A stretch of DNA of 63,889 nt, filler included, from Acidimicrobiia bacterium (GTDB lineage Bacteria; Actinomycetota; Acidimicrobiia; Spongiisociales; JAHEDJ01), in NCBI GenBank assembly GCA_029210695.1. It is 4 parts of 4 records of this genome, joined end to end, with 100 filler letters (N's around TTAATTAATTAA, not from the genome) between each part and the next. Parts side by side here need not be neighbours in the genome. Positions count along the whole stretch, not along the records: positions 35,018 to 52,322 come from JARGFH010000070.1; 3 more parts are not named here. One strand, given 5' to 3'. Within the stretch, counting starts at the first letter, position 1, and every line of letters begins with the position of its first letter. The notes beneath the pieces were generated by a model, which saw only the letters and a program-made list of their open reading frames with translations, made no database searches and had not been told where the DNA came from. Of the stretch, positions 2,795 through 52,422 are shown piece after piece. The position numbers were made by a program, and so were the translations under genes.

Positions 2795-5700
2795 TCAGTC
2801 GGTGTCGACGCGGACCACGGTGAGATCAAACAAACCAGAAAGGTCTGCAGTCTCGCTATGACTCACAGCACCGAGGTACTTCGTATCGGGGTCGAGGCCA
2901 ACCCAATCCACCTGGATGGAGTAGGTGTCCCCGAGGGTGGCCGTCGTGGGACCGGTCACCGTCATATTTGTACTGCCCGGCGTTGCCGGAACGGACCAGT
3001 CGAACAGCGTGTATCTGCTGTCCGGACCGTCCGTCTGCCAGCCGTGGACGAACACGTAGTAGTCACCGGCAGGCGGGAACAGGACGTTGACTTCCTCCGC
3101 CGATGTGCCCGAACCACTCCCTCCGGCAAACGAGCCACCGGGGTAAAACACGTATAGGTCGAGGTCGTCGTTTCCGTCTGTGTAGTCGTCGAACAGCGAG
3201 AATCGCGCCAATGCAGATCCTGCGGGAACGGTGACGAAATGCAACGTAGTCCCCGGGCCGAATGGCGCAAAGCTGTTACCGGGGTCATCAAGCACAGTGC
3301 CATCGGTCATCGTCGCGGCCACCAACCCATGGGGTTGGGCGAAGTAATCGCCGTTGTACCCGAACACGATCGAGAACTCGAGCGACCCATCCGTGCCCGA
3401 ACCGAAGACCTCACCTGGAACGGCTGCCTGCACCGCGCGCACCGTCAGCACGCTACGAACCGCGTGCGGTCCGTGGGACCACGTCAGTGAGCCGAACGCA
3501 TAATCGCCGATCGTCGCCGTATCAGTCGTCGTGAAGGTGACCTCGTAGATTCCCGTTTCACCCGGGGCGAGCGTGAGCTCATCGGGCGAGACAACGACGT
3601 CCACGCCGAACGGTTCGTCCACAGAGACTGCGTACGTGTGCGTGCCACCGGCGACGTTCGTCACTCGGCGCTCGACCGTCTGGGTTCCCGCCAGCTCACC
3701 GATGGTGATGTTCGGCTGGTTCAGGTCGCTCGGATCGATACCGATCAACGGGCAGTAGCTCGCCTGGAGCTGACCCGTCCCGCACAGGAAACCGAGCCAG
3801 TCGACCCAGCCGGCGTCGTACACGAGACCCGGATCCAGCGCCGAGTTCGGAGCTACATGGCCAGAGCCGTAGTCAAACGGGTCACCCGGAATCGGGTTCT
3901 CCTCGTTCGTCAACTGCGATGCCGTCGTCATCAGGGCCGACTTGATCATCGTCGGCGACCAGTCGGGATGAGCCGACTTCACCACGGCGGCGAGACCGGC
4001 AATGTGCGGACTCGACATCGACGTGCCGCTGAGCGAGTCGAAGTTCCGGCCGTTGTATCCGGCGGGTGAAACTGCGGCGATTATGTCCTGGCCAGGCGCC
4101 ATGATGTCCGGCTTGAGCAAGTCGGATGATCCCTGGAGTGGACCTCTCGACGAGAACGACGCCACATCGGGTGCTTCGATCGTGACAGGTGTCGCAGGCG
4201 AAATCGATGCGGTGGCATCGGCGGTCTGGGCATACGCCCGAATCGCCGCTCCATCGATGTGATCGACGTGAACCGTCGGCACTGAGTGCAGATCAGCGTT
4301 GATGGAGCTGGGGCTGACATTGGCGTGCACCATCCCAGCACCGCCGGCCATCGCCACGGCCAGGCTCTTGTCTACGCGTGCGATCGTCCCCCGATCGCAG
4401 ACGACGATGTTGCCGTCCACCAGAGCCGCATCGAGCGTGCCCGGGTAGCAAAGGCGGACTTGTGTCGGATCCTCGCCTGCCAGCCCTACATCGGCCGAGT
4501 AGACCAGGTTGGTCTCATCGACTCCGGTGAACTGGAAGGAGGCGCCGACGTACGAGTCGCCGTTGCCCAGGGTGACCGTGGCCTCTGAATACCGATCATG
4601 AGTCCCGGCCGCCACCGTAGTGATCCACGGCGAGGGATGGGCGACGGTCGCCGCTGTCGGACCGGCGTTGCCGGCCGACGCAGCGACGAACACACCGGCG
4701 TCCTCCGCAAATAGGAACGCAACTTCCACAGGATCGAGGAAGTTGGTTCTGGTGCCGCTGATCGAGAAGTTGATCACGTCGACACCGTCTGCCACAGCCT
4801 GGTCGATTGCTGCCACGGAGTCGGATGAGAAACACCCACCCGCGTCGCCGCGGCCCCAGCAAACCTTGTACGAGGCGATGCGAGCCCGCGGGGCCATCCC
4901 GCTAACGGATCCGAGGGCGAGCCCATCGACCACAGCCGCCACGTTGCCGTTTCCACCTGCTGTGCTGGCAGTGTGGGTGCCATGTCCATCGGCGTCACGC
5001 GCCGACCAGTACTCGTAAGGGAATAAGGCACTCACGCCTGCTTCCCCGCCCCAACCGGCTCCAAAGAACTGGGCGCCGATCAGCTTCTGATTGCACTCGT
5101 CGGCTTGGAACTCGTCACCCGGGGTGCACTTGCCGTGCCAGCCCGGTATCTGCTGGTAGTCGAGCTTCCCAGGCGTACCGTTCGGGTTGGTACCCGTCCG
5201 ATCGGCGAAGCTGAGGCTCTCAGGCCAAATGCCGGAGTCGACGATGCCGATGATGACATTCTCGCCGGTGTACCCCATTTCCCACGCTCCGCCGTCATCG
5301 GTCAGACCGAGGAAGTCCGGGGTGGAGATCGTGTCCACGGCCATCAGCTCGTCTTGCCAGATCATCCGCACATCGTTGCGCGCTGCCATCGCGGCAGCCT
5401 GCGAACCGGTCAGCTTCGCGGCGAAACCGTTGAACGTGTAGGAGTAGTCATACAGTTTCTTGTCGAGGCCGGCACCGACGCCATTCAGCGCGCCGTTGTG
5501 CTTGCCCTTGAGGTAGTCGACATACTTGACGACTTTGCCGCTGTCCGGGTCGATCTTCTTCCCGTCCTTGGGCTTGGTCGAAGCCAGGCCTTTGATACTC
5601 CCGTCGTATGCCACCACGGGGTCATCAATCATTTGAACGATGTAGGTAGCTTCGCCTTTCTCAGCGTTGATCGCCGAGACCACGTCGTCCGGAACTTCAA

Positions 5701-17438: not shown

Positions 17439-17538
17439 NNNNNNNNNNNNNNNNNNNNNNNNNNNNNNNNNNNNNNNNNNNNTTAATTAATTAANNNNNN
17501 NNNNNNNNNNNNNNNNNNNNNNNNNNNNNNNNNNNNNN
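17439..17538. other. Artificial contig linker
   Basis: N-run with TTAATTAATTAA, identical design at all three gaps. Confidence 0.95.
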
Positions 17539-31750: not shown

Positions 31751-32926
31751 GTGCGACCCTCCTATTTCACTTCTGAATCCGTGACAGAAGGCCATCCCGA
31801 CAAGGTTGCGGACCGAATCGCCGATGCGGTGCTGGATGCGGTGCTCGAACACGACCCGGTGGGGCGGGTGGCGTGTGAAGTTTTGGTCACCGGTGGGCTC
31901 GTGGTAGTCGCCGGCGAGATCACCTCAGTGTATGCCCCTGATCTCGAAGGCATCGTCCGCAGGGTCATTACCGACGTCGGGTATACCGACGATCGGCTTG
32001 GGTTTTCCGCCGAGACGTGTCGTGTGCAAATCGAAGTTCAACAGCAGAGCGCCGACATCGCCGGGGGAGTCGATCACGCCACAGAGGAGCGGGGAGGGTC
32101 CCACGATCTGTACGATCAACTCGGCGCCGGTGATCAGGGGATCATGTTCGGATTCGCCGCCGACGAAACGCCGGAGTTGATGCCCATGCCCATTCAGCTG
32201 GCGCACCGCCTGGCCGAGCAACTGGCAGAGGTGCGGCGGGATGGAACGCTCGGTTATCTGCGCCCGGACGGCAAGACGCAAGTCAGCGTCGAATACCTCG
32301 CGAACCGGCCGATCCGGGTTTCCCGGGTGCTGATCTCGACTCAGCACGCCCCCGACGTTTCGATCGAAACGATGGAATCCGACCTGGCGAAGTACGTCGT
32401 TGGCGCCGTTATCCCTGCCGACCTCGTCGACGACTCCACAGATCTGGTGGTGAATCCTTCTGGAAGGTTTGAGCTGGGCGGCCCTGCGGCCGACACAGGA
32501 GTGACCGGACGGAAGATCGTCGTCGACACCTACGGCGGATCTGCCAGACACGGAGGAGGAGCCTTCAGCGGGAAGGACCCCACCAAAGTCGATAGATCCG
32601 CTTCGTACGCCACCCGCTACGCAGCCAAAAACATCGTGGCCGCCGGGCTGGCAGAAAGGGTCGAACTACAGATCGCATATGCGATCGGCACCGCACAGCC
32701 CTTCTCGATTCTGGTTGATACCTTCGGCACCGGCCGGGTTCCGAACCACGAACTCGAACGGATCGTGGCAGCGACATTCGACTTCCGGCCCGCCGCGATC
32801 ATCGACCACCTGGGGCTTCGCAAGCCGATCTACGAGCCAACGGCCACGTACGGGCACTTCGGTCGACCCCAGTTCAGCTGGGAGCACACGGACGCGGTGG
32901 CCGCCCTTCAAGCTGCGGCGGGATGA
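31751..32926 (+). CDS. metK: S-adenosylmethionine synthetase
   Basis: [35 protein letters not shown]. Confidence 0.97.
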
Positions 32927-34689
32927 TCGCCCGGGTCGTCCCGGACATTCCGAGTTTCGCAGTTGATGGTGGATTTCGTTACGCGATTCCTCCCGATCTC
33001 ACCGTCGAACTCGGGACCATGGTTCGCATCTCGTTGGGTGGTCGGAAGGTGCGCGGCTTCGTCGTGGGTTTCGAACGCGGCCCGGAGGAGGGCCTCAAAC
33101 CGATTCGCGCCCGATCGGGAGATCGTCCGGTCTTCAATGATCGGTTGTTGCAGACCCTCCGCTGGGCATCAAATCACTATGTAGCCCCGCTCTCAACGTT
33201 GCTGCGCAGGGCTGCGCCGCCGAATCTTCCGCGTAGCCCGAAACGCACGCCTCGCACGGTGGTGACGCCGGTCAACTCCGGAACAGCGGCCGCCGGCCTT
33301 GGGTTTCGGATCGCGGCAGGAAGCACCCGCAACGCCTACCTTCAGGCGGCAGACCCGGACGACCTGGCCGACCTCGTCGCACCGGTCGTAGCAGGCGGTT
33401 CGTCGGTGTTGATCGTGGCTCCCACTGCCTTGGAAGCGGAGCAGATTCTCGATCGACTGAACCGGGACTTCGGAGACGTCGTCCTCGCAGCCACGCCCGA
33501 AACCACCGATCGCGAGGTGACAACAGCCTGGAGCAAGGCTGCGTCGCACGGCGGCTACATCGTTGTGGGAACGCCCAGGGTATCTCTCTGGCCGGTTGCA
33601 CAACTCGGAGCGGCGATCATCGTCGGCGAGGCGCGGCGTGCGATGAAGGATCGGCAAACACCAACGATCCACGTCCGCGAGGTGCTCCGGGCGCGCAGCG
33701 GCGTCGAACGATTTGCTCTCGTTCTGACCGGATTGGTTCCGTCCACCGAGACGATCGCCGCGGGAATTGAGATAGTGGCCGCAGCTCCCCGCCGACCCTG
33801 GTCGCTTGTCGAATTCGCCGATCGGAGTGAAGATCCGCCGGGGACGAGCCCACTCTCCCAAAGAGCCAAGACGGCGATCGCGTCCACCGTGAATCGCGGC
33901 GAACACGTCTTCGTCTTCACTCATCGACGGGGCTACGCCCCCGTCTTTCGCTGCGTTCGCTGTCGAGCCTTGAGGGTGTGCACTACGTGTGGGGCCAGAG
34001 CGGGTAGAGATTTGGAGTGCCGGCGCTGTGGTGCCCTACACGGGCCTTGTGCCTCATGTGGCGGCGACCATTTCGAACCGCTCGGGGCGGGTGTCGAACG
34101 GGTGGTTGAACTCGTGCGGCGGTTCGTTGATGCCGAAAAGGTGGGTGTAGCCGGTGAGGGTCGCCTGGTCACAGTGGGGTCGGTGCGAGATATTCCTGCG
34201 GTAGGCCGCTGTTCGTTGGCGGTGGTCGTGGATGCCGACGGATTGATCTTGGGCACCGATTATCGGGCAAGCGAGGACGCCTTGCGGTCGCTGGCGAGAG
34301 TAGCCGCGCTGGTCGGGTCGGGTAGAGGACTCCGGACCATCGTCCAGACGTCGAATCCTCAGCACCCAGTGCTGGAAGCCCTTACCAGAGGTGATGTGGG
34401 TACGTTTCTCGCCGCAGAAGTCGAACAGCGGGCCGCCTTCGGGTTTCCGCCGGCAGGCGATCTCATCGTCCTCGAATGCCGGACCTGCCCGGAGGAAGCC
34501 GATGTGAAGCTACGGGGTCGCCTCCCGGGTATCACCGTGCTCGGCCCTGCTCCAATCGATGGGGGATTGCGGTGGCTCATACAAGGTAGTGATCTGACCC
34601 GGACACGTGCCGAACTCCGGAACCTGGCCGGTGAATGGCGCGATGCCGGGGCCGGTCTGCGGATCGATGTTGATCCGGTTGATCTCTAG
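32923..34689 (+). CDS. priA: Primosomal protein N' with degenerate helicase motifs
   Basis: N-terminal 3'-DNA-binding domain, RRGYAP, four CxxC pairs, IDVDP end; no GKT/DEEH. Confidence 0.85.
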
Positions 34690-34740
34690 GAGTAGGCAGA
34701 AGGCAGTAGGCGATAGGCGGTGTAGAGGGTGGTGGGTGGC

Positions 34741-34873
34741 GAGTTTCGGAGGAACTCGAATTCGCCGGCGTTGGCTGGTATGCCTCGGCCCGAGTTTCGG
34801 TGGAATTGGAATCTGCTGGTGTTGGCTGGTATGCCTCGGGCCGAGTTCCGGAGGAACTCGAACCTGCCGGTGT
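34741..34873 (+). repeat. 51-bp imperfect tandem repeat (~2.6 copies)
   Basis: Units start at 34741, 34792, 34843 (GAGTTTCGGAGGAACTCGAA...TTGGCTGGTATGCCTCGG). Confidence 0.8.
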
Positions 34874-34917: not shown

Positions 34918-35017
34918 NNNNNNNNNNNNNNNNNNNNNNNNNNNNNNNNNNNNNNNNNNNNTTAATTAATTAANNNNNNNNNNNNNNNNNNNNNNNNNNN
35001 NNNNNNNNNNNNNNNNN
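34918..35017. other. Artificial contig linker
   Basis: N-run with TTAATTAATTAA. Confidence 0.95.
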
Positions 35018-35102: not shown

Positions 35103-35882
35103 CTACTCGATCAAGGCGAACACGTCGGCCACCACCAGCTCAGCCGCGACGTCGATGTCGTAGCCCTCGGGCCAGGCCGTCACCAGCGGGCGGATGTCTT
35201 CGCGGAACGCCGATCGTTTCACCTTCTCGCGCAGGTTCAGCTCGGCACGGCGTGCGGTGTACCCGTCGGGCCGATAGGGACCGAAGGCATCGACGATGGA
35301 CGACGCCGGAACACCGAGCCGGGTCAGGGCCAGCCAGAGATCGAAGAGGTCGCGCCCCTTCGATCGCTGGAACAGGGCTCGGATCTTCGTTGCCACGACC
35401 TCGTCCAGGGTGAAGGTGAGCACGTCGGCGCTACCGGCGAACCAGGAGGAGTCAACGTGGAACGGGATCTTGACCGGTGGGCGGGCCGGTGAGCGCTCGA
35501 AGGTGTTGACCTCGATCTTGATCCTCATCGGACCTGCCCCGGTCTCATACTGCGCGCGCAGGAACATCTTGGGGTGCTCGGTGAGTCTCGTCCGCACCTC
35601 CATACCAAGTCGCTTGCCGATCTGGGTGACCGCCCGGGTGAGTTCTCGGATCCCGCCGCCAGTGCTGCGGACGTAGTCGAGGTCCTCGCTGTAGCGGAGC
35701 GGTTCAGGTGCATGGAGCTTGTGCAAACAGGTGCCGCCTCGGAACACCAGCTCGTCACCGAGGTAGCCGTCGTTGGCGATCTCGGCGATGAGCCGGGACA
35801 ACAGCAGGTCCTGCTCGATCTGCTCCACCGTCGGCCACGGCACAGTGCGGCCCCATTCGGTGATGGCCGCTTGGGGGATCAC
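35103..35882 (-). CDS. abiEii: AbiEii-family nucleotidyltransferase toxin (type IV TA)
   Basis: QIEQDLLLSR, FRGGTCL, RYSEDLD, KIRALFQRSKGRDLFD; GTGA overlap with antitoxin. Confidence 0.92.
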   Translation of the reverse strand: MIPQAAITEWGRTVPWPTVEQIEQDLLLSRLIAEIANDGYLGDELVFRGGTCLHKLHAPEPLRYSEDLDYVRSTGGGIRELTRAVTQIGKRLGMEVRTRLTEHPKMFLRAQYETGAGPMRIKIEVNTFERSPARPPVKIPFHVDSSWFAGSADVLTFTLDEVVATKIRALFQRSKGRDLFDLWLALTRLGVPASSIVDAFGPYRPDGYTARRAELNLREKVKRSAFREDIRPLVTAWPEGYDIDVAAELVVADVFALIE

Positions 35883-36697
35883 GACGACTCCTCGTCCGGG
35901 TACTCGGCCACGATCACATTCCAACGCCGATCGAGGGTCCCGGATCGTCCGTGGCCGGGGTCCAACGGAGTGGGCGTGGCCCGCGCTGACGCAAGGGGTA
36001 CCAGCGGTTCGGTGTCGACTTCCACGTCGACTCGCCCGGCCATGTAGTCGAGGAGCCATCCGGTACGTTGTACGATCGACGCCGGATAGTCGGAGGCGAC
36101 CTCGGCGAGACGACCAACATCGAGACCATCCTCAATCAGCATGTCGCCGATGATGGTCGCCACGTTGAACAAGGCCCCACTTGCATTTGGGAAGGAAACC
36201 AGATCGAGCACGGTGGCCTCCGGGGTGGACACACGCATGGTCCCGGTTGGGGTGTTGACGACACCCGTGGGACGATCCGACGTATGCACGGAAGTGATGA
36301 ATTCGATTCGAACCCGCCCGAATGTCCGAGACCGAAGCCGCGCCGGCGTCATCACCTGAAAGACCTGAGGACGCTGATGGGAGAACCCGTGGATCTCGGC
36401 CGCCGACAGGAGGCAGACGTAGTAGTCGTGGCCGAGATGGCGCATCATCGGATCCACGAAGTGGGCCGCCGGGACGGCACGCCAGGAGCGGTACTCGGGT
36501 GGGATGGCAACGTACAATCCCGTGGTTGGGCTGAACAGATGCCCGCGCCGCCGCGACTGAGCCAACGACGGTGCTACGTGGTGCTCCGGGATTCCCAGTA
36601 GCTCAGCGGCCTCGGTCGTGGTCACCCAGTGTCGACCACGAGCCAGCAACCAGTCAGCCAACTCGCGCGGTCCAAGCGAAGCTGTCACATCAGTCAT
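35879..36697 (-). CDS. abiEi: AbiEi-family antitoxin (type IV TA); original ATG at 38657-38655, separated by the intron
   Basis: N-terminal wHTH, YYVCLLSAAEIHG, STPEATVLD, QRTGWLL motifs. Confidence 0.9.
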   Translation of the reverse strand: MTDVTASLGPRELADWLLARGRHWVTTTEAAELLGIPEHHVAPSLAQSRRRGHLFSPTTGLYVAIPPEYRSWRAVPAAHFVDPMMRHLGHDYYVCLLSAAEIHGFSHQRPQVFQVMTPARLRSRTFGRVRIEFITSVHTSDRPTGVVNTPTGTMRVSTPEATVLDLVSFPNASGALFNVATIIGDMLIEDGLDVGRLAEVASDYPASIVQRTGWLLDYMAGRVDVEVDTEPLVPLASARATPTPLDPGHGRSGTLDRRWNVIVAEYPDEESS

Positions 36698-38654
36698 TGG
36701 TAGTCAGGGGCGCAGTGCCCGCATTGCGGGTCTGTTTCCCCGTTCTCCTTTCAATCCGTGCGTGCGGTTTTCCCGCACACGGCTTACCGACGGTCTTCTT
36801 AGCATGGTTACGCAGCCTTCGGGTAGCGGATAGTGCCCATGAGCTTGTGCAGGCCCTGGTCGTGGAACCAGGTGCGGGTCCAACGGTCCGCCTGGCCGGC
36901 ATGGAGGTTGCGGCCCCGCTTCTTGATGAGAAGACGTTTGAGCCGCCACGCCACATAGCCGTCCAGAGAAACGAACTTGTTCGCCGCGTTCCCGGTGCGG
37001 AAATAGTTGCCCCATCCCCGAAGGAACAGGTTGAGGTCGCCGATGACGTCCTCCAACTCCCATCCGACCCGACTCCGACCGGTGAGAGCCTTGACTCTGG
37101 TCCGTGCCCGTTTCATCGACCGTTGCGACGGCCACCGGTGCAAGTAGTAACGCACGATGCGTTTCTGTTCCCACAAGCGACCCGACATGCGGGCATGAAA
37201 ATGGCAACCCAAAAAGTCGAAACCCTCAGCACCTTCCCGGAGATCAACCACACGGGTCTTGTCCGGATGCAGTACCAAACCGAGTTCACCCAACATGGCG
37301 GTTGCCCGCCGCTGGGCATCCTCGGCCTGTTCCCGAGTTGAGCACAACACCACGAAATCGTCCGCATAACGGACCAACTCCCCGATGCCGGACTCAACCC
37401 AGACCCGATCGAATGCATGTAGAAAGATGTTGGCCAACAACGGGGAAATGACCCCGCCCTGAGGTGTGCCGGTAACCGTCTCACGCCTCACCCCATCAAC
37501 CATCACTCCTGCACACAGCCACTGACGCAACAGCTTGAGTACCCGCCTATCCGATACGCGCCCAGCAACCAGACCCAACAGGCGGTCATGGTCGATACTG
37601 CCAAAGAAATCCCGAATGTCAGCCTCAAAGACAAACTGTTGTCCTCGAGGGAACGCCACCCGAATCACCTCCAACGCATCAGTGGCCGAACGTTTCGGAC
37701 GGAACCCGAAACTCACAGACAGAAAATCGGCCTCGAAAATCGGTTCAAGGACGATCTTTGCTGCCTGCTGGCACACCCGGTCACGCACCGTAGGGATACC
37801 CAAAGGCCGTCTAGAGCCGTCAGGTTTAGGGATCTCCACCCGACGCGTCGGCGCCGGACGATAGACACCTGCACGAAGATCCACAGCAAGCCCATCCAAC
37901 ATGCGATGAACGCCGTAATCCTCTATCGCCGCCAAGGTCACCTTATCGACCCCAGCAGCGCCACGATTCGCTCGGACCCGTTCCCACGCCTCCCACAAGA
38001 CGTCACTCCTATAGATACGGTCATACAGGGCATGGAAACGCCGCCCCTCCGACTGCTTGGCCGCAGCCCATAGCCGTCTTTGGAGTTGTCGCACTTTGTC
38101 AACCGACCCGCGTCGATCGGGGTAGTTGGACCGACCAGAGTCGGCCATGCCCTCACGCTTACCTCCATCCCCGGCATAACCGAAGCCAGGGCCCTTCCCT
38201 CCCGCCGGGTTCCTCCCAACGATCTGCGGTACTACGACCCCGTCGGACTCCCGCTGTGCTCCGCTCGATTTCACCATTGGCTTATACCAGCGGTCTCCGC
38301 CCGACAAGGCTGCACAGACGGGTCTCTCCTGTTCCGTAACGAAACCATGCACACGTGCCGCTCCCCATACCCCGAGAGGACCCGACGGCGGGCATATCCG
38401 GAACGCCAGTCCGTCGAACATCGACCTTCACCGTGACATGAACGGCTCGGCTCCTCCATTGTGTATCTGACGAGGCTGCAGGACTCGCACCTGATGGCAC
38501 TACGGCCCACGTGCTTGCTCCCTCCAAAGAGGCTTTTGACACCCCGCTCAGCCCGCCACCTCTCAGCAACGAACCGGGGCCTGCTACCGGGCTCTCCGGC
38601 GATTACCCGCACGGGACTCCCACCCGCTGGCTTCGTCCAGCTTCCAGGACGCAA
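36695..38654 (-). mobile_element. Group II intron, 1960 nt, endonuclease-less (class F/G-like)
   Basis: 5' TTGCG at 38654; domain V AAGCCGTGTGCGGGAAAACCGCACGCACGGATT (36785-36753); domain VI with bulged A in CTACC; removal restores ATG-ACT-GAT; boundaries could shift by 1 nt. Confidence 0.9.
36808..38148 (-). CDS. ltrA: Group II intron reverse transcriptase/maturase, no En domain
   Basis: RPLGIPTVRDR, GTPQGGVISPLLAN, RYADD, FDFLG, GWGNYF; ends after domain X. Confidence 0.95.
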   Translation of the reverse strand: MADSGRSNYPDRRGSVDKVRQLQRRLWAAAKQSEGRRFHALYDRIYRSDVLWEAWERVRANRGAAGVDKVTLAAIEDYGVHRMLDGLAVDLRAGVYRPAPTRRVEIPKPDGSRRPLGIPTVRDRVCQQAAKIVLEPIFEADFLSVSFGFRPKRSATDALEVIRVAFPRGQQFVFEADIRDFFGSIDHDRLLGLVAGRVSDRRVLKLLRQWLCAGVMVDGVRRETVTGTPQGGVISPLLANIFLHAFDRVWVESGIGELVRYADDFVVLCSTREQAEDAQRRATAMLGELGLVLHPDKTRVVDLREGAEGFDFLGCHFHARMSGRLWEQKRIVRYYLHRWPSQRSMKRARTRVKALTGRSRVGWELEDVIGDLNLFLRGWGNYFRTGNAANKFVSLDGYVAWRLKRLLIKKRGRNLHAGQADRWTRTWFHDQGLHKLMGTIRYPKAA

Positions 38655-38657
38655 CAT

Positions 38658-38700
38658 GTACCGATACTAACCAGAATCTTTAGATTCGATACATAACCGG
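38658..38700 (-). promoter_or_regulatory. Putative leaderless abiE promoter/operator
   Basis: TAGTAT (38669-38664) 6 nt before ATG; palindrome GAATCT-N2-AGATTC at 38674-38687; CGATAC..AACC direct repeats. Confidence 0.55.
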
Positions 38701-52322: not shown

Positions 52323-52422
52323 NNNNNNNNNNNNNNNNNNNNNNNNNNNNNNNNNNNNNNNNNNNNTTAATTAATTAANNNNNNNNNNNNNNNNNNNNNN
52401 NNNNNNNNNNNNNNNNNNNNNN
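52323..52422. other. Artificial contig linker
   Basis: N-run with TTAATTAATTAA. Confidence 0.95.

Follow-up and report, generated by a model that had tools for sequence, protein, structure and literature searches.

How can an intron reside directly behind the first codon of a gene, and what makes such a position its target? Here, we address this question for a group II intron in a stretch of DNA of 63,889 nucleotides (nt) from an Acidimicrobiia bacterium (assembly GCA_029210695.1), which we refer to as the window. Based on Rfam, Pfam and junction comparison, the intron (UUGCG...CCAAUG; 1960 nt; 36695..38654, minus strand) interrupts abiEi immediately after its ATG. At the 5′ junction, the minus strand reads GGTAC-ATG (38657-38655) followed from 38654 by TTGCGTCC and, at greater length, TTAGTATCGGTAC-ATG/TTGCGTCCTGG. 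At the 3′ junction, it reads GACTACCA-ATG (36697-36695) followed from 36694 by ACTGAT and, at greater length, CCCCTGACTACCA-ATG/ACTGATGTG. Excision of 38654..36695 (1960 nt, minus strand) yields abiEi ATG-ACT-GAT; the junctions and the restored start are as a first-pass annotation of this DNA had described them.

We conclude from sequence comparison that this is very probably an intact, probably mobile, endonuclease (En)-less and IIB-like intron that belongs to a sublineage in Actinomycetota specialized for insertion into leaderless genes, at the boundary of the start codon with codon 2. Comparison across the lineage establishes three pairings by which the intron RNA would read its target, i.e., exon-binding site 1 (EBS1) with C(-1)-R-U-G, EBS3 with the first base of codon 2 and EBS2 with the end of the -10 box. 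At the level of the DNA sequence, the terminal AUG of the intron keeps the host open reading frame (ORF) intact. The evidence supports the first-pass annotation as largely right, with a target that is more specific than it had proposed.

Insertion after start codons is a property of the lineage

A scan of species-representative genomes with the intron-encoded reverse transcriptase (RT) gave 465 relatives, and the best 80 of these (65-93% identity) were analyzed. The 80 relatives derive mostly from metagenome-assembled genomes of Acidimicrobiia and other Actinomycetota, and also from Kribbella and Nonomuraea. A plasmid search added a copy from Embleya (67% identity) and outgroups near 51% identity, including Rh.sp.I1 of pRHL1. 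Junctions were located by projecting the ends of the window intron onto these loci, giving 71 5′ junctions (69 of the 80 genome loci, the window and the Embleya plasmid copy) and 78 3′ ends (76 of the 80 loci and the same two additions). The triplet preceding the intron is ATG in 50 cases, GTG in 19 and CTG in one, while in one case it is cut by a contig end. The first five bases of the intron are UUGCG in 43 cases and the canonical GUGCG in 28. The 3′ end is AATG in 75 introns and AGTG in three, and the 3′ tail CUACCAAUG is identical in 74/78. For a single locus, ATG at both junctions is expected by chance in about 1 in 64 cases; however, the repeat recurs throughout the lineage. The first-pass annotation had suggested, from the window sequence, a lineage whose members insert behind start codons and terminate in an AUG of their own, and that homologs be collected by their RT and their flanks tabulated. 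The suggestion is borne out by 70 readable 5′ junctions, all of which have a start codon, and by 78 3′ ends with AUG or GUG.

Among the 11 loci without a 5′ junction, eight have the RT match near a contig start, and three (L027, L049 and L066) are 5′-truncated copies. The latter lack approximately the first 500-580 nt, as expected from incomplete reverse transcription, and still end in AATG before host sequence, where the ORF extends over 10 (L027), 496 (L049) and 339 (L066) codons.

Two lines of evidence indicate that the triplets are real start codons. First, an ORF of ≥100 codons in frame 0 is present in 62 of 73 loci, as opposed to 10 and 27 for the other two frames. Second, Pfam families are found in 55 of 67 host ORFs, are of many kinds and often begin at profile position 1-5. 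The host genes encode, among others, ClpB, MetRS, DnaX, malate dehydrogenase (Mdh), isopropylmalate dehydrogenase, six short-chain dehydrogenases/reductases, regulators of the MarR, PadR and MerR types and two integrases. In one host, the product is Fpg beginning with MPE, in which the Pfam domain starts from residue 1 and Pro2 is what we take to be the catalytic residue. In the case of abiEi, homologs share the same initiator Met; 44 of the 120 best in a protein search begin with MTD, and most of 40 inspected are 271-272 amino acids (aa) long.

By virtue of the terminal AUG, the host ORF would still be preceded by a start codon; alternatively, this AUG could mimic the exon sequence paired by EBS1, i.e., intron-binding site 1 (IBS1). 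A strong competitor to the surrogate start codon, although one that we rate somewhat below even chances, is in fact that the AUG is retained for reasons of the RNA, either because its G is required for the γ-γ′ pairing or because the tail mimics IBS1 and pairs with EBS1. The tail is conserved as a whole, and its conservation, therefore, does not single out the AUG. Moreover, neither a Shine-Dalgarno sequence nor a -10 box precedes the terminal AUG; specifically, a search for an internal -10 box before this ATG found none, the 3′ end reading CTGACTACCAATG. Also, the introns L026, L037 and L048 end in GUG, and the two of these with known EBS1 (L026 and L037) carry EBS1 CAC instead of CAU and reside at GTG sites. 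On the other hand, the sole variant of the 3′ triplet, GUG (3/78), is itself a start codon, and codon 2 necessarily follows the terminal AUG in the same frame wherever the intron is inserted. Separately, the GUG-ending introns hint at a pairing of the 3′ triplet with EBS1 or at its homogenization with the target codon.

The target comprises a -10 box and a start codon

Among 65 distinct 45-nt flanks upstream of the introns, positions -1 and -2 are G and T in 65/65; position -3 is occupied by A (45 flanks), G (19) or C (one), and 50 flanks have C at position -4. TANNNT hexamers are present in 60/65 sites, with their first base at -15 (40 sites), -16 (18) or -17, and are, thus, located 6-7 nt upstream of the start codon. 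Among longer flanks (66), the first base of TANNNT is at -15 in 42, at -16 in 18 and at -17 in two, with five matches over 52 other offsets. By contrast, cores resembling a Shine-Dalgarno sequence occur in 7/66 flanks, which is the same as in a control window (7/66). In the window itself, the -10-like hexamer TAGTAT (38664..38669, minus strand) precedes the abiEi ATG by 6 nt (-12..-7 from its A). For Mycobacterium tuberculosis, the reported architecture of leaderless genes has TANNNT at 7-12 bp before a transcription start that is a purine, most often with a pyrimidine beside it; a -35 hexamer was not found in the promoters, and 32/37 toxin-antitoxin pairs are leaderless (Cortes 2013, PMC3898074). 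The position of the -10 box in the intron lineage agrees with the leaderless architecture as given there. A scan for sigma-70 promoters that returned 0 sites was uninformative because it demands a -35 hexamer. Together, the -10 box at the start codon and the lack of Shine-Dalgarno enrichment indicate that the genes targeted, which are of many kinds, are leaderless. The targeting of start codons proposed in the first-pass annotation holds at all readable sites, while the leaderless promoter units and EBS2 had escaped it.

Part of the -10 box appears to be read by RNA. In the window, IBS2 GTATC (38663..38667, minus strand), which takes in the four bases at the 3′ end of the -10 box plus the one after (-13..-9), forms 5/5 Watson-Crick pairs with EBS2 GAUAC (intron nt 188-192; 38463..38467, minus strand). 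EBS2 was assigned based on permutation and covariation: over 59 intron/site pairs, the mean is 3.8/5 paired positions compared to 2.9-3.1 in permuted pairs (0/5000 reach the observed value), and in our alignment A2, all five pairs change on both sides. For the "TA" of the -10 box, an RNA partner was sought and none was found.

These observations are consistent with the following scenario. Transcription would start at the A of the host ATG, and the 5′ exon in the RNA would consist of only pppAUG. Splicing would then rebuild the exact leaderless mRNA. Like other En-less introns, the element would move by reverse splicing into a DNA target, with replication forks providing the primer. A protein might read the "TA" of the -10 box, or these two bases might simply mark promoter DNA that melts easily. 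In the most far-reaching version, toward which we lean by a narrow margin, this amounts to a fourth target-site strategy of bacterial group II introns, next to homing sites, terminators and attC: The ribonucleoprotein (RNP) would read TANNNT-N6/7-RTG and insert at transcript position +3/+4; the intron would be transcribed from the first nucleotide of the mRNA with a 5′ exon of 3 nt and provide a surrogate AUG; and the G1/AY ends would have been given up, with U1 when EBS3 is C.

Alternatively, the link to the promoter could be indirect, in that the RNP accepts any C-R-T-G/N and only copies at leaderless starts persist or are expressed, or in that the RNP attacks DNA opened by transcription initiation. 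We regard this as unlikely but deserving of attention. It would fit with the "TA" having no detected RNA partner and with the spacing between box and start codon varying (-15 in 40 sites, -16 in 18) as it does in natural promoters; also, a rough and unmeasured estimate based on composition puts the chance occurrences of TANNNT-N6/7-CRTG at no more than some hundreds per genome. However, the pairing of EBS2 with the 3′ half of the box is specific to each intron, as indicated by the permutations and the five covarying pairs, from which it follows that RNA recognizes a portion of the box. Moreover, the 65 sites include no intergenic or intragenic CATG copies.

Covariation places the splice sites after the host start codon and after the terminal AUG

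Because TG is present at both junctions in all introns, DNA alone cannot place the cut within TG. We, therefore, turned to the pairings that hold the exons. The first base of the 3′ exon (A36694 in the window) is pairable with EBS3, intron nt 288 (U38367, minus strand, in the window), in 61/61 introns (A-U 29, G-C 17, C-G 11, U-A 1, G.U 2 and U.G 1). The mutual information between EBS3 and IBS3 is 1.38, whereas 200 shuffles of the labels gave at most 0.41, and exon bases +2 to +5, tested against nt 288, gave no covariation signal. In Rh.sp.I1, the EBS3 column is A and the 3′ exon begins with U. The first-pass annotation had placed EBS3 immediately after the EBS1 hairpin, at U38430; this base gave no covariation signal, and the real EBS3 is U38367.

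EBS1 is presented by a hairpin (38431..38445, minus strand) with the stem CCGT/ACGG (38445-38442 / 38434-38431) and the loop TCATGTC. EBS1 CAUG (intron nt 215-218; 38440-38437, minus strand) pairs with IBS1 CATG, i.e., the C at -1 from the start codon and the host ATG at 38657-38655 (38655..38658, minus strand), placing the 5′ splice site after G38655. Among 61 introns, exon position -4 and nt 218 form C-G in 48, A-U in four, U-A in four and G.U in four, with one mismatch (56 Watson-Crick pairs), while exon position -3 and nt 217 form A-U in 44, G.U in 10 and G-C in six, also with one mismatch. In alignment A2, 98.9% of cells in the EBS1-IBS1 helix are paired, with 13 and six double changes. 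The register is the one found in Rh.sp.I1: the loop UCAUGUC aligns with the Rh.sp.I1 loop, in which AGUG pairs with the last four exon bases CACU. The first-pass annotation had, thus, recognized the loop correctly as EBS1 and had extended the pairing too far; the pairing is CAUG with C-A-U-G, and the fifth pair, with exon position -5, lacks covariation. The whole-structure covariation score of the EBS/IBS pairings is 0.256 compared to 0.121 +/- 0.010 in shuffles (0/500 reach the observed value), and all slid registers score lower.

Further features place the 3′ splice site. γ, the C of the J2/3 sequence CGA (intron nt 410; 38245, minus strand), pairs with the terminal G36695. γ is C in 61/61 ingroup introns, in which the last base is G, A in Rh.sp.I1, in which the last base is U, and G in three Streptomyces relatives, in which the last base is C. 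The γ-γ′ pairing proposed from the window sequence is, thus, found in the three states C-G, A-U and G-C. Furthermore, six bases follow the bulge of domain VI in both the ingroup (CCAAUG) and the outgroups (CCCUAY), and the candidate branch point A36701 is at -7 from G36695. This agrees with the earlier placement of a bulged A at -7, the tail length being the same in the outgroups and the consensus fold leaving this column bulged. Altogether, comparison shows the splice sites as RUG/[G/U]UGCG and CCAAUG/N, with the last G held by the C of J2/3. A covariation partner for intron nt 1 was also sought, and none was found except for an association with EBS3.

This placement leaves very little room for ordinary boundaries, GUUGCG...CCAAU, with the ATG repeat as a coincidental 3-nt ambiguity of the junctions. 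Such boundaries would fit the textbook consensus G...AU and the alignment to RF00029, which stops at U36696, and they would be compatible with the invariant TG on both sides, within which DNA alone does not place the cut. However, they would make IBS3 an invariant G, yet it is the base after the AUG that covaries with nt 288 (61/61); they would conflict with the EBS1 register shared with Rh.sp.I1, which places the cut after the G, and with γ being C rather than A or G; and they would give 28/71 introns a GGUGCG start. Equally improbable is an insertion before the start codon, with the upstream RTG as the 5′ end of the intron and the downstream ATG as the host codon: the empty site would be identical at ATG sites and the 3′ triplet is nearly always ATG, but copies with identical RT-coding sequence (L059-L063) follow ATG, GTG or CTG, so that the triplet belongs to the target, exon positions -3 and -4 covary with EBS1, the spacing of the -10 box places the transcription start on the upstream R, and the 50:19 ratio of ATG to GTG resembles the start-codon usage of actinobacteria.

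Several points count against the proposal that the intron is a member of a lineage specialized for leaderless starts. The support comes from comparing sequences, and from the best 80 of 465 relatives. The shuffles used as controls overstate significance because the sequences are related. One of the 5′ junctions is at a CTG, 5/65 sites lack a perfect TANNNT, and 11/73 sites lack a long in-frame ORF. Only 66.7% of cells in alignment A2 pair in a fixed EBS2-IBS2 register. The match to the Rfam model of domains V and VI, RF00029 (36787-36696; 35.9 bits), is under the gathering score of 40 and aligns the terminal "AU" to 36697-36696, which is one base short of the proposed 3′ end. Finally, U at position 1 and UG in place of AY deviate from a near-universal consensus and might impair splicing.

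Variation and mobility within the lineage

A quick maximum-likelihood tree based on the RT-coding part requires no fewer than 26 changes of EBS3 and no fewer than 15 of intron nt 1, and 36 variants of EBS2 are present among 59 introns. The fast changes in EBS3 and EBS2 indicate that copies hop between unrelated leaderless genes. The copies L059-L063, which are identical in their RT-coding sequence, reside in one genome after ATG, GTG and CTG. Indirect evidence for retromobility comes from the 5′-truncated copies and from two genomes that each have RT-identical copies (at the level of the coding sequence) at five different sites.

The identity of nt 1 is linked to that of EBS3. EBS3 = C never occurs with G1 (0/17), and introns with EBS3 = C start with U. 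In 11 independent contrasts, EBS3 and nt 1 changed together in approximately seven and never in the opposite direction (sign test, median p = 0.016). A plausible explanation is that U1 in introns with EBS3 = C keeps their own 5′ junction, which would be RTG/G with G1, from resembling the target or the ligated exons.

A number of relatives have a modified structure. In L003, L013, L016 and L045, a second group II intron (group-II-D1D4-2) is nested in or just after domain V, making these elements twintrons (e.g., L045:1898-2015 and L013:5449-5566); in L045, the insert follows CACGTACGGAT/GTGTG, right behind the domain V hairpin. The length of L013 (3920 nt = 2 × 1960) had raised the possibility of a tandem double intron; this was rejected, the two halves being unrelated and the nested intron being of the other family. 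L041 (at intron nt ~332), L080 (nt ~513-561) and L029 have an 830-nt insertion, a 1.4-kb insertion and a 108-nt deletion in the RT, respectively. On the Embleya plasmid (L082:1987-2005), the 5′ exon GTGCGTCC-ATG precedes the intron's own GTGCGTCC, i.e., the first 8 nt of the intron are duplicated upstream of the start codon. On a Streptomyces chartreusis plasmid (L083, ~3411-3440), an outgroup intron ends in GACCCTAC with ATGAGG directly after; a sister lineage may reside just upstream of a start codon.

Comparison with known group II introns

The nearest named relative is Rh.sp.I1 of Rhodococcus jostii RHA1 pRHL1. Its RT is 51% identical, it has the same Rfam D1D4-4 core and also lacks an En domain, and the EBS1 hairpin, the position of EBS3, the J2/3-domain III region and the layout of domain VI are the same. 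However, Rh.sp.I1 and the three Streptomyces relatives end in GACCCUAY and have A or G as γ, whereas the window lineage has AAUG, C as γ and EBS1 CAUG. Moreover, Rh.sp.I1, the one outgroup for which the 5′ end was read, starts with GUGCG and is not at a start codon, whereas the window lineage has G or U at position 1. Rh.sp.I1 is listed as "Unclassified" (Toro & Martinez-Abarca 2013, Table S2), and the En-less introns of actinobacteria termed "unclassified" or "class F-g1-like" constitute a related group (Toro & Martinez-Abarca 2013; Monachello 2016).

Group IIC introns insert after terminators or attC sites (Zimmerly & Semper 2015, PMC4424553). The window intron resembles them in being En-less, in its short IBS1 (4 nt here) and one-base IBS3, in having RTs of the IIC type as the closest solved structures (6AR1 and 7UIM), and in the use of a generic, recurring target at gene boundaries instead of a single homing site, a choice that opens many loci to dispersal. 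It differs from them in that the lineage targets a -10 box and start codon and not a terminator or attC hairpin, and in its supported EBS2 pairing, the match to D1D4-4, the ribozyme of ~620 nt and the AUG end. As a class, group IIC introns are not known to have an EBS2-IBS2 pairing. Membership in group IIC was rejected based on the type of target and the supported EBS2 pairing.

The IIB1 lineage of Avi.groEL and EcKTE56.groEL inserts within or next to initiation or termination codons, carries a 5′-subterminal insertion of 300-700 nt in domain I and resides in housekeeping genes (Gomes et al. 2025, PMC12584367). In both cases, the split codon is replaced, with UAA becoming UAG in the IIB1 lineage and AUG being resupplied by the window intron. 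In contrast to what is described for that lineage, the window intron has neither the 5′ insertion nor an En domain, and membership in an Avi.groEL-type IIB1 lineage was rejected for these two reasons. The window lineage is always at start and never at stop codons, and its hosts include housekeeping, regulatory, integrase and toxin-antitoxin genes. Group IIC-attC introns are described as carrying outward promoters (PMC3001079). There, as here, the intron supplies an expression signal to the downstream gene; however, this signal is a promoter in IIC-attC introns and a start codon here, without a -10 box before the terminal ATG. Literature on the targeting of start codons or leaderless genes by group II introns contained, in what was searched, no account of this lineage and only the IIB1 one; Michel 2007 (Biochimie) and Simon 2008 were not covered and could bear on priority.

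Reviews name three target specificities of bacterial group II introns, i.e., homing sites, terminators and attC (PMC4424553). A lineage that recognizes leaderless promoter/start units would add a target class to these three. It would also account for the presence of introns in unrelated genes by the hundreds, some of them essential (ClpB, MetRS, DnaX and Mdh), that are not destroyed by the insertion. Gene callers, presented with an ATG at the 3′ end of the intron, find the host ORF intact and overlook that it is interrupted. The lineage also poses the question of the limits of the ribozyme, i.e., whether it splices with a triphosphorylated 5′ exon of 3 nt, U1 and a 3′ UG. Finally, a short, programmable set of EBS sequences aimed at the start codons of high-GC Actinobacteria could serve in gene targeting.

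Anatomy of the intron and its locus

All intron features are on the minus strand. The domain I core (38495..38629) matches Rfam RF02003, group-II-D1D4-4, with 86.8 bits (gathering score 49; E = 1.2e-17) and begins at intron nt 26. The ribozyme comprises ~620 nt, of which 506 nt precede the RT ORF. This ORF (36808..38148) encodes an RT/maturase of 446 aa from the ATG at 38148, with RVT_1 (9.5e-34) and GIIM (5e-16) domains; the domain search of the intron ORF found no En domain. Domain V (36753..36785) has two pairs with compensatory changes. Domain VI (36699..36748), with A36701 as the bulged branch-point candidate, was defined by the RNAalifold consensus and is followed by the unpaired 3′ tail AAUG (36695..36698), in which the last three bases, AUG (36697-36695), can be read at the DNA level as the start of abiEi. 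In the RNAalifold consensus of 70 sequences, domains V and VI are supported by eight covarying pairs, with the A bulged and the tail AAUG unpaired. The boundaries depart from the consensus GUGYG...AY, the window intron reading UUGCG...UG and the lineage having 28/71 GUGCG starts and 0/78 AY ends. Assignment to group II, therefore, rests on the other features, i.e., domains V and VI with a bulged A, a core of domains I-IV, an ORF for RT and maturase, and the EBS-IBS and γ-γ′ pairings.

The frame opened by the host start codon enters domains I-II of the intron (38657-38271, minus strand, in the window) and, in the majority of relatives, has a length of ~125-128 codons (127 codons in 21, 128 in 14, 125 in eight, 126 in five and 100 in 10). 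This could be due to chance in a GC-rich, conserved RNA or could be relevant to ribosomes that load at the 5′ AUG.

Exon 2 of abiEi, from codon 2 to the stop codon (35879..36694, minus strand), encodes a PF09407 domain (1.5e-33), and its first base, A36694, is IBS3. It overlaps abiEii (35103..36059, minus strand), which encodes the partner toxin, a nucleotidyltransferase (PF08843, 2.9e-30). The order of antitoxin and then nucleotidyltransferase is that of an AbiE type IV toxin-antitoxin system. A Fic gene is located upstream of abiEi in divergent orientation. Searches for intronless abiEi alleles in plasmids gave only relatives of ≤36% identity, and the AbiEi protein search gave homologs of the same length without their DNA context.

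TTAATTAATTAA linkers are present at 17483-17494, 34918-35017 and 52367-52378 of the window, the middle one flanked by runs of N, and for this reason, the window is probably several contigs that were joined artificially. If so, the intron locus is on the piece from ~35018 to ~52.3 kb, and the gene for PriA (32923-34689) is on another piece. A tandem repeat of 51 bp in 2.6 copies (34740-34873) is located just before the contig end.

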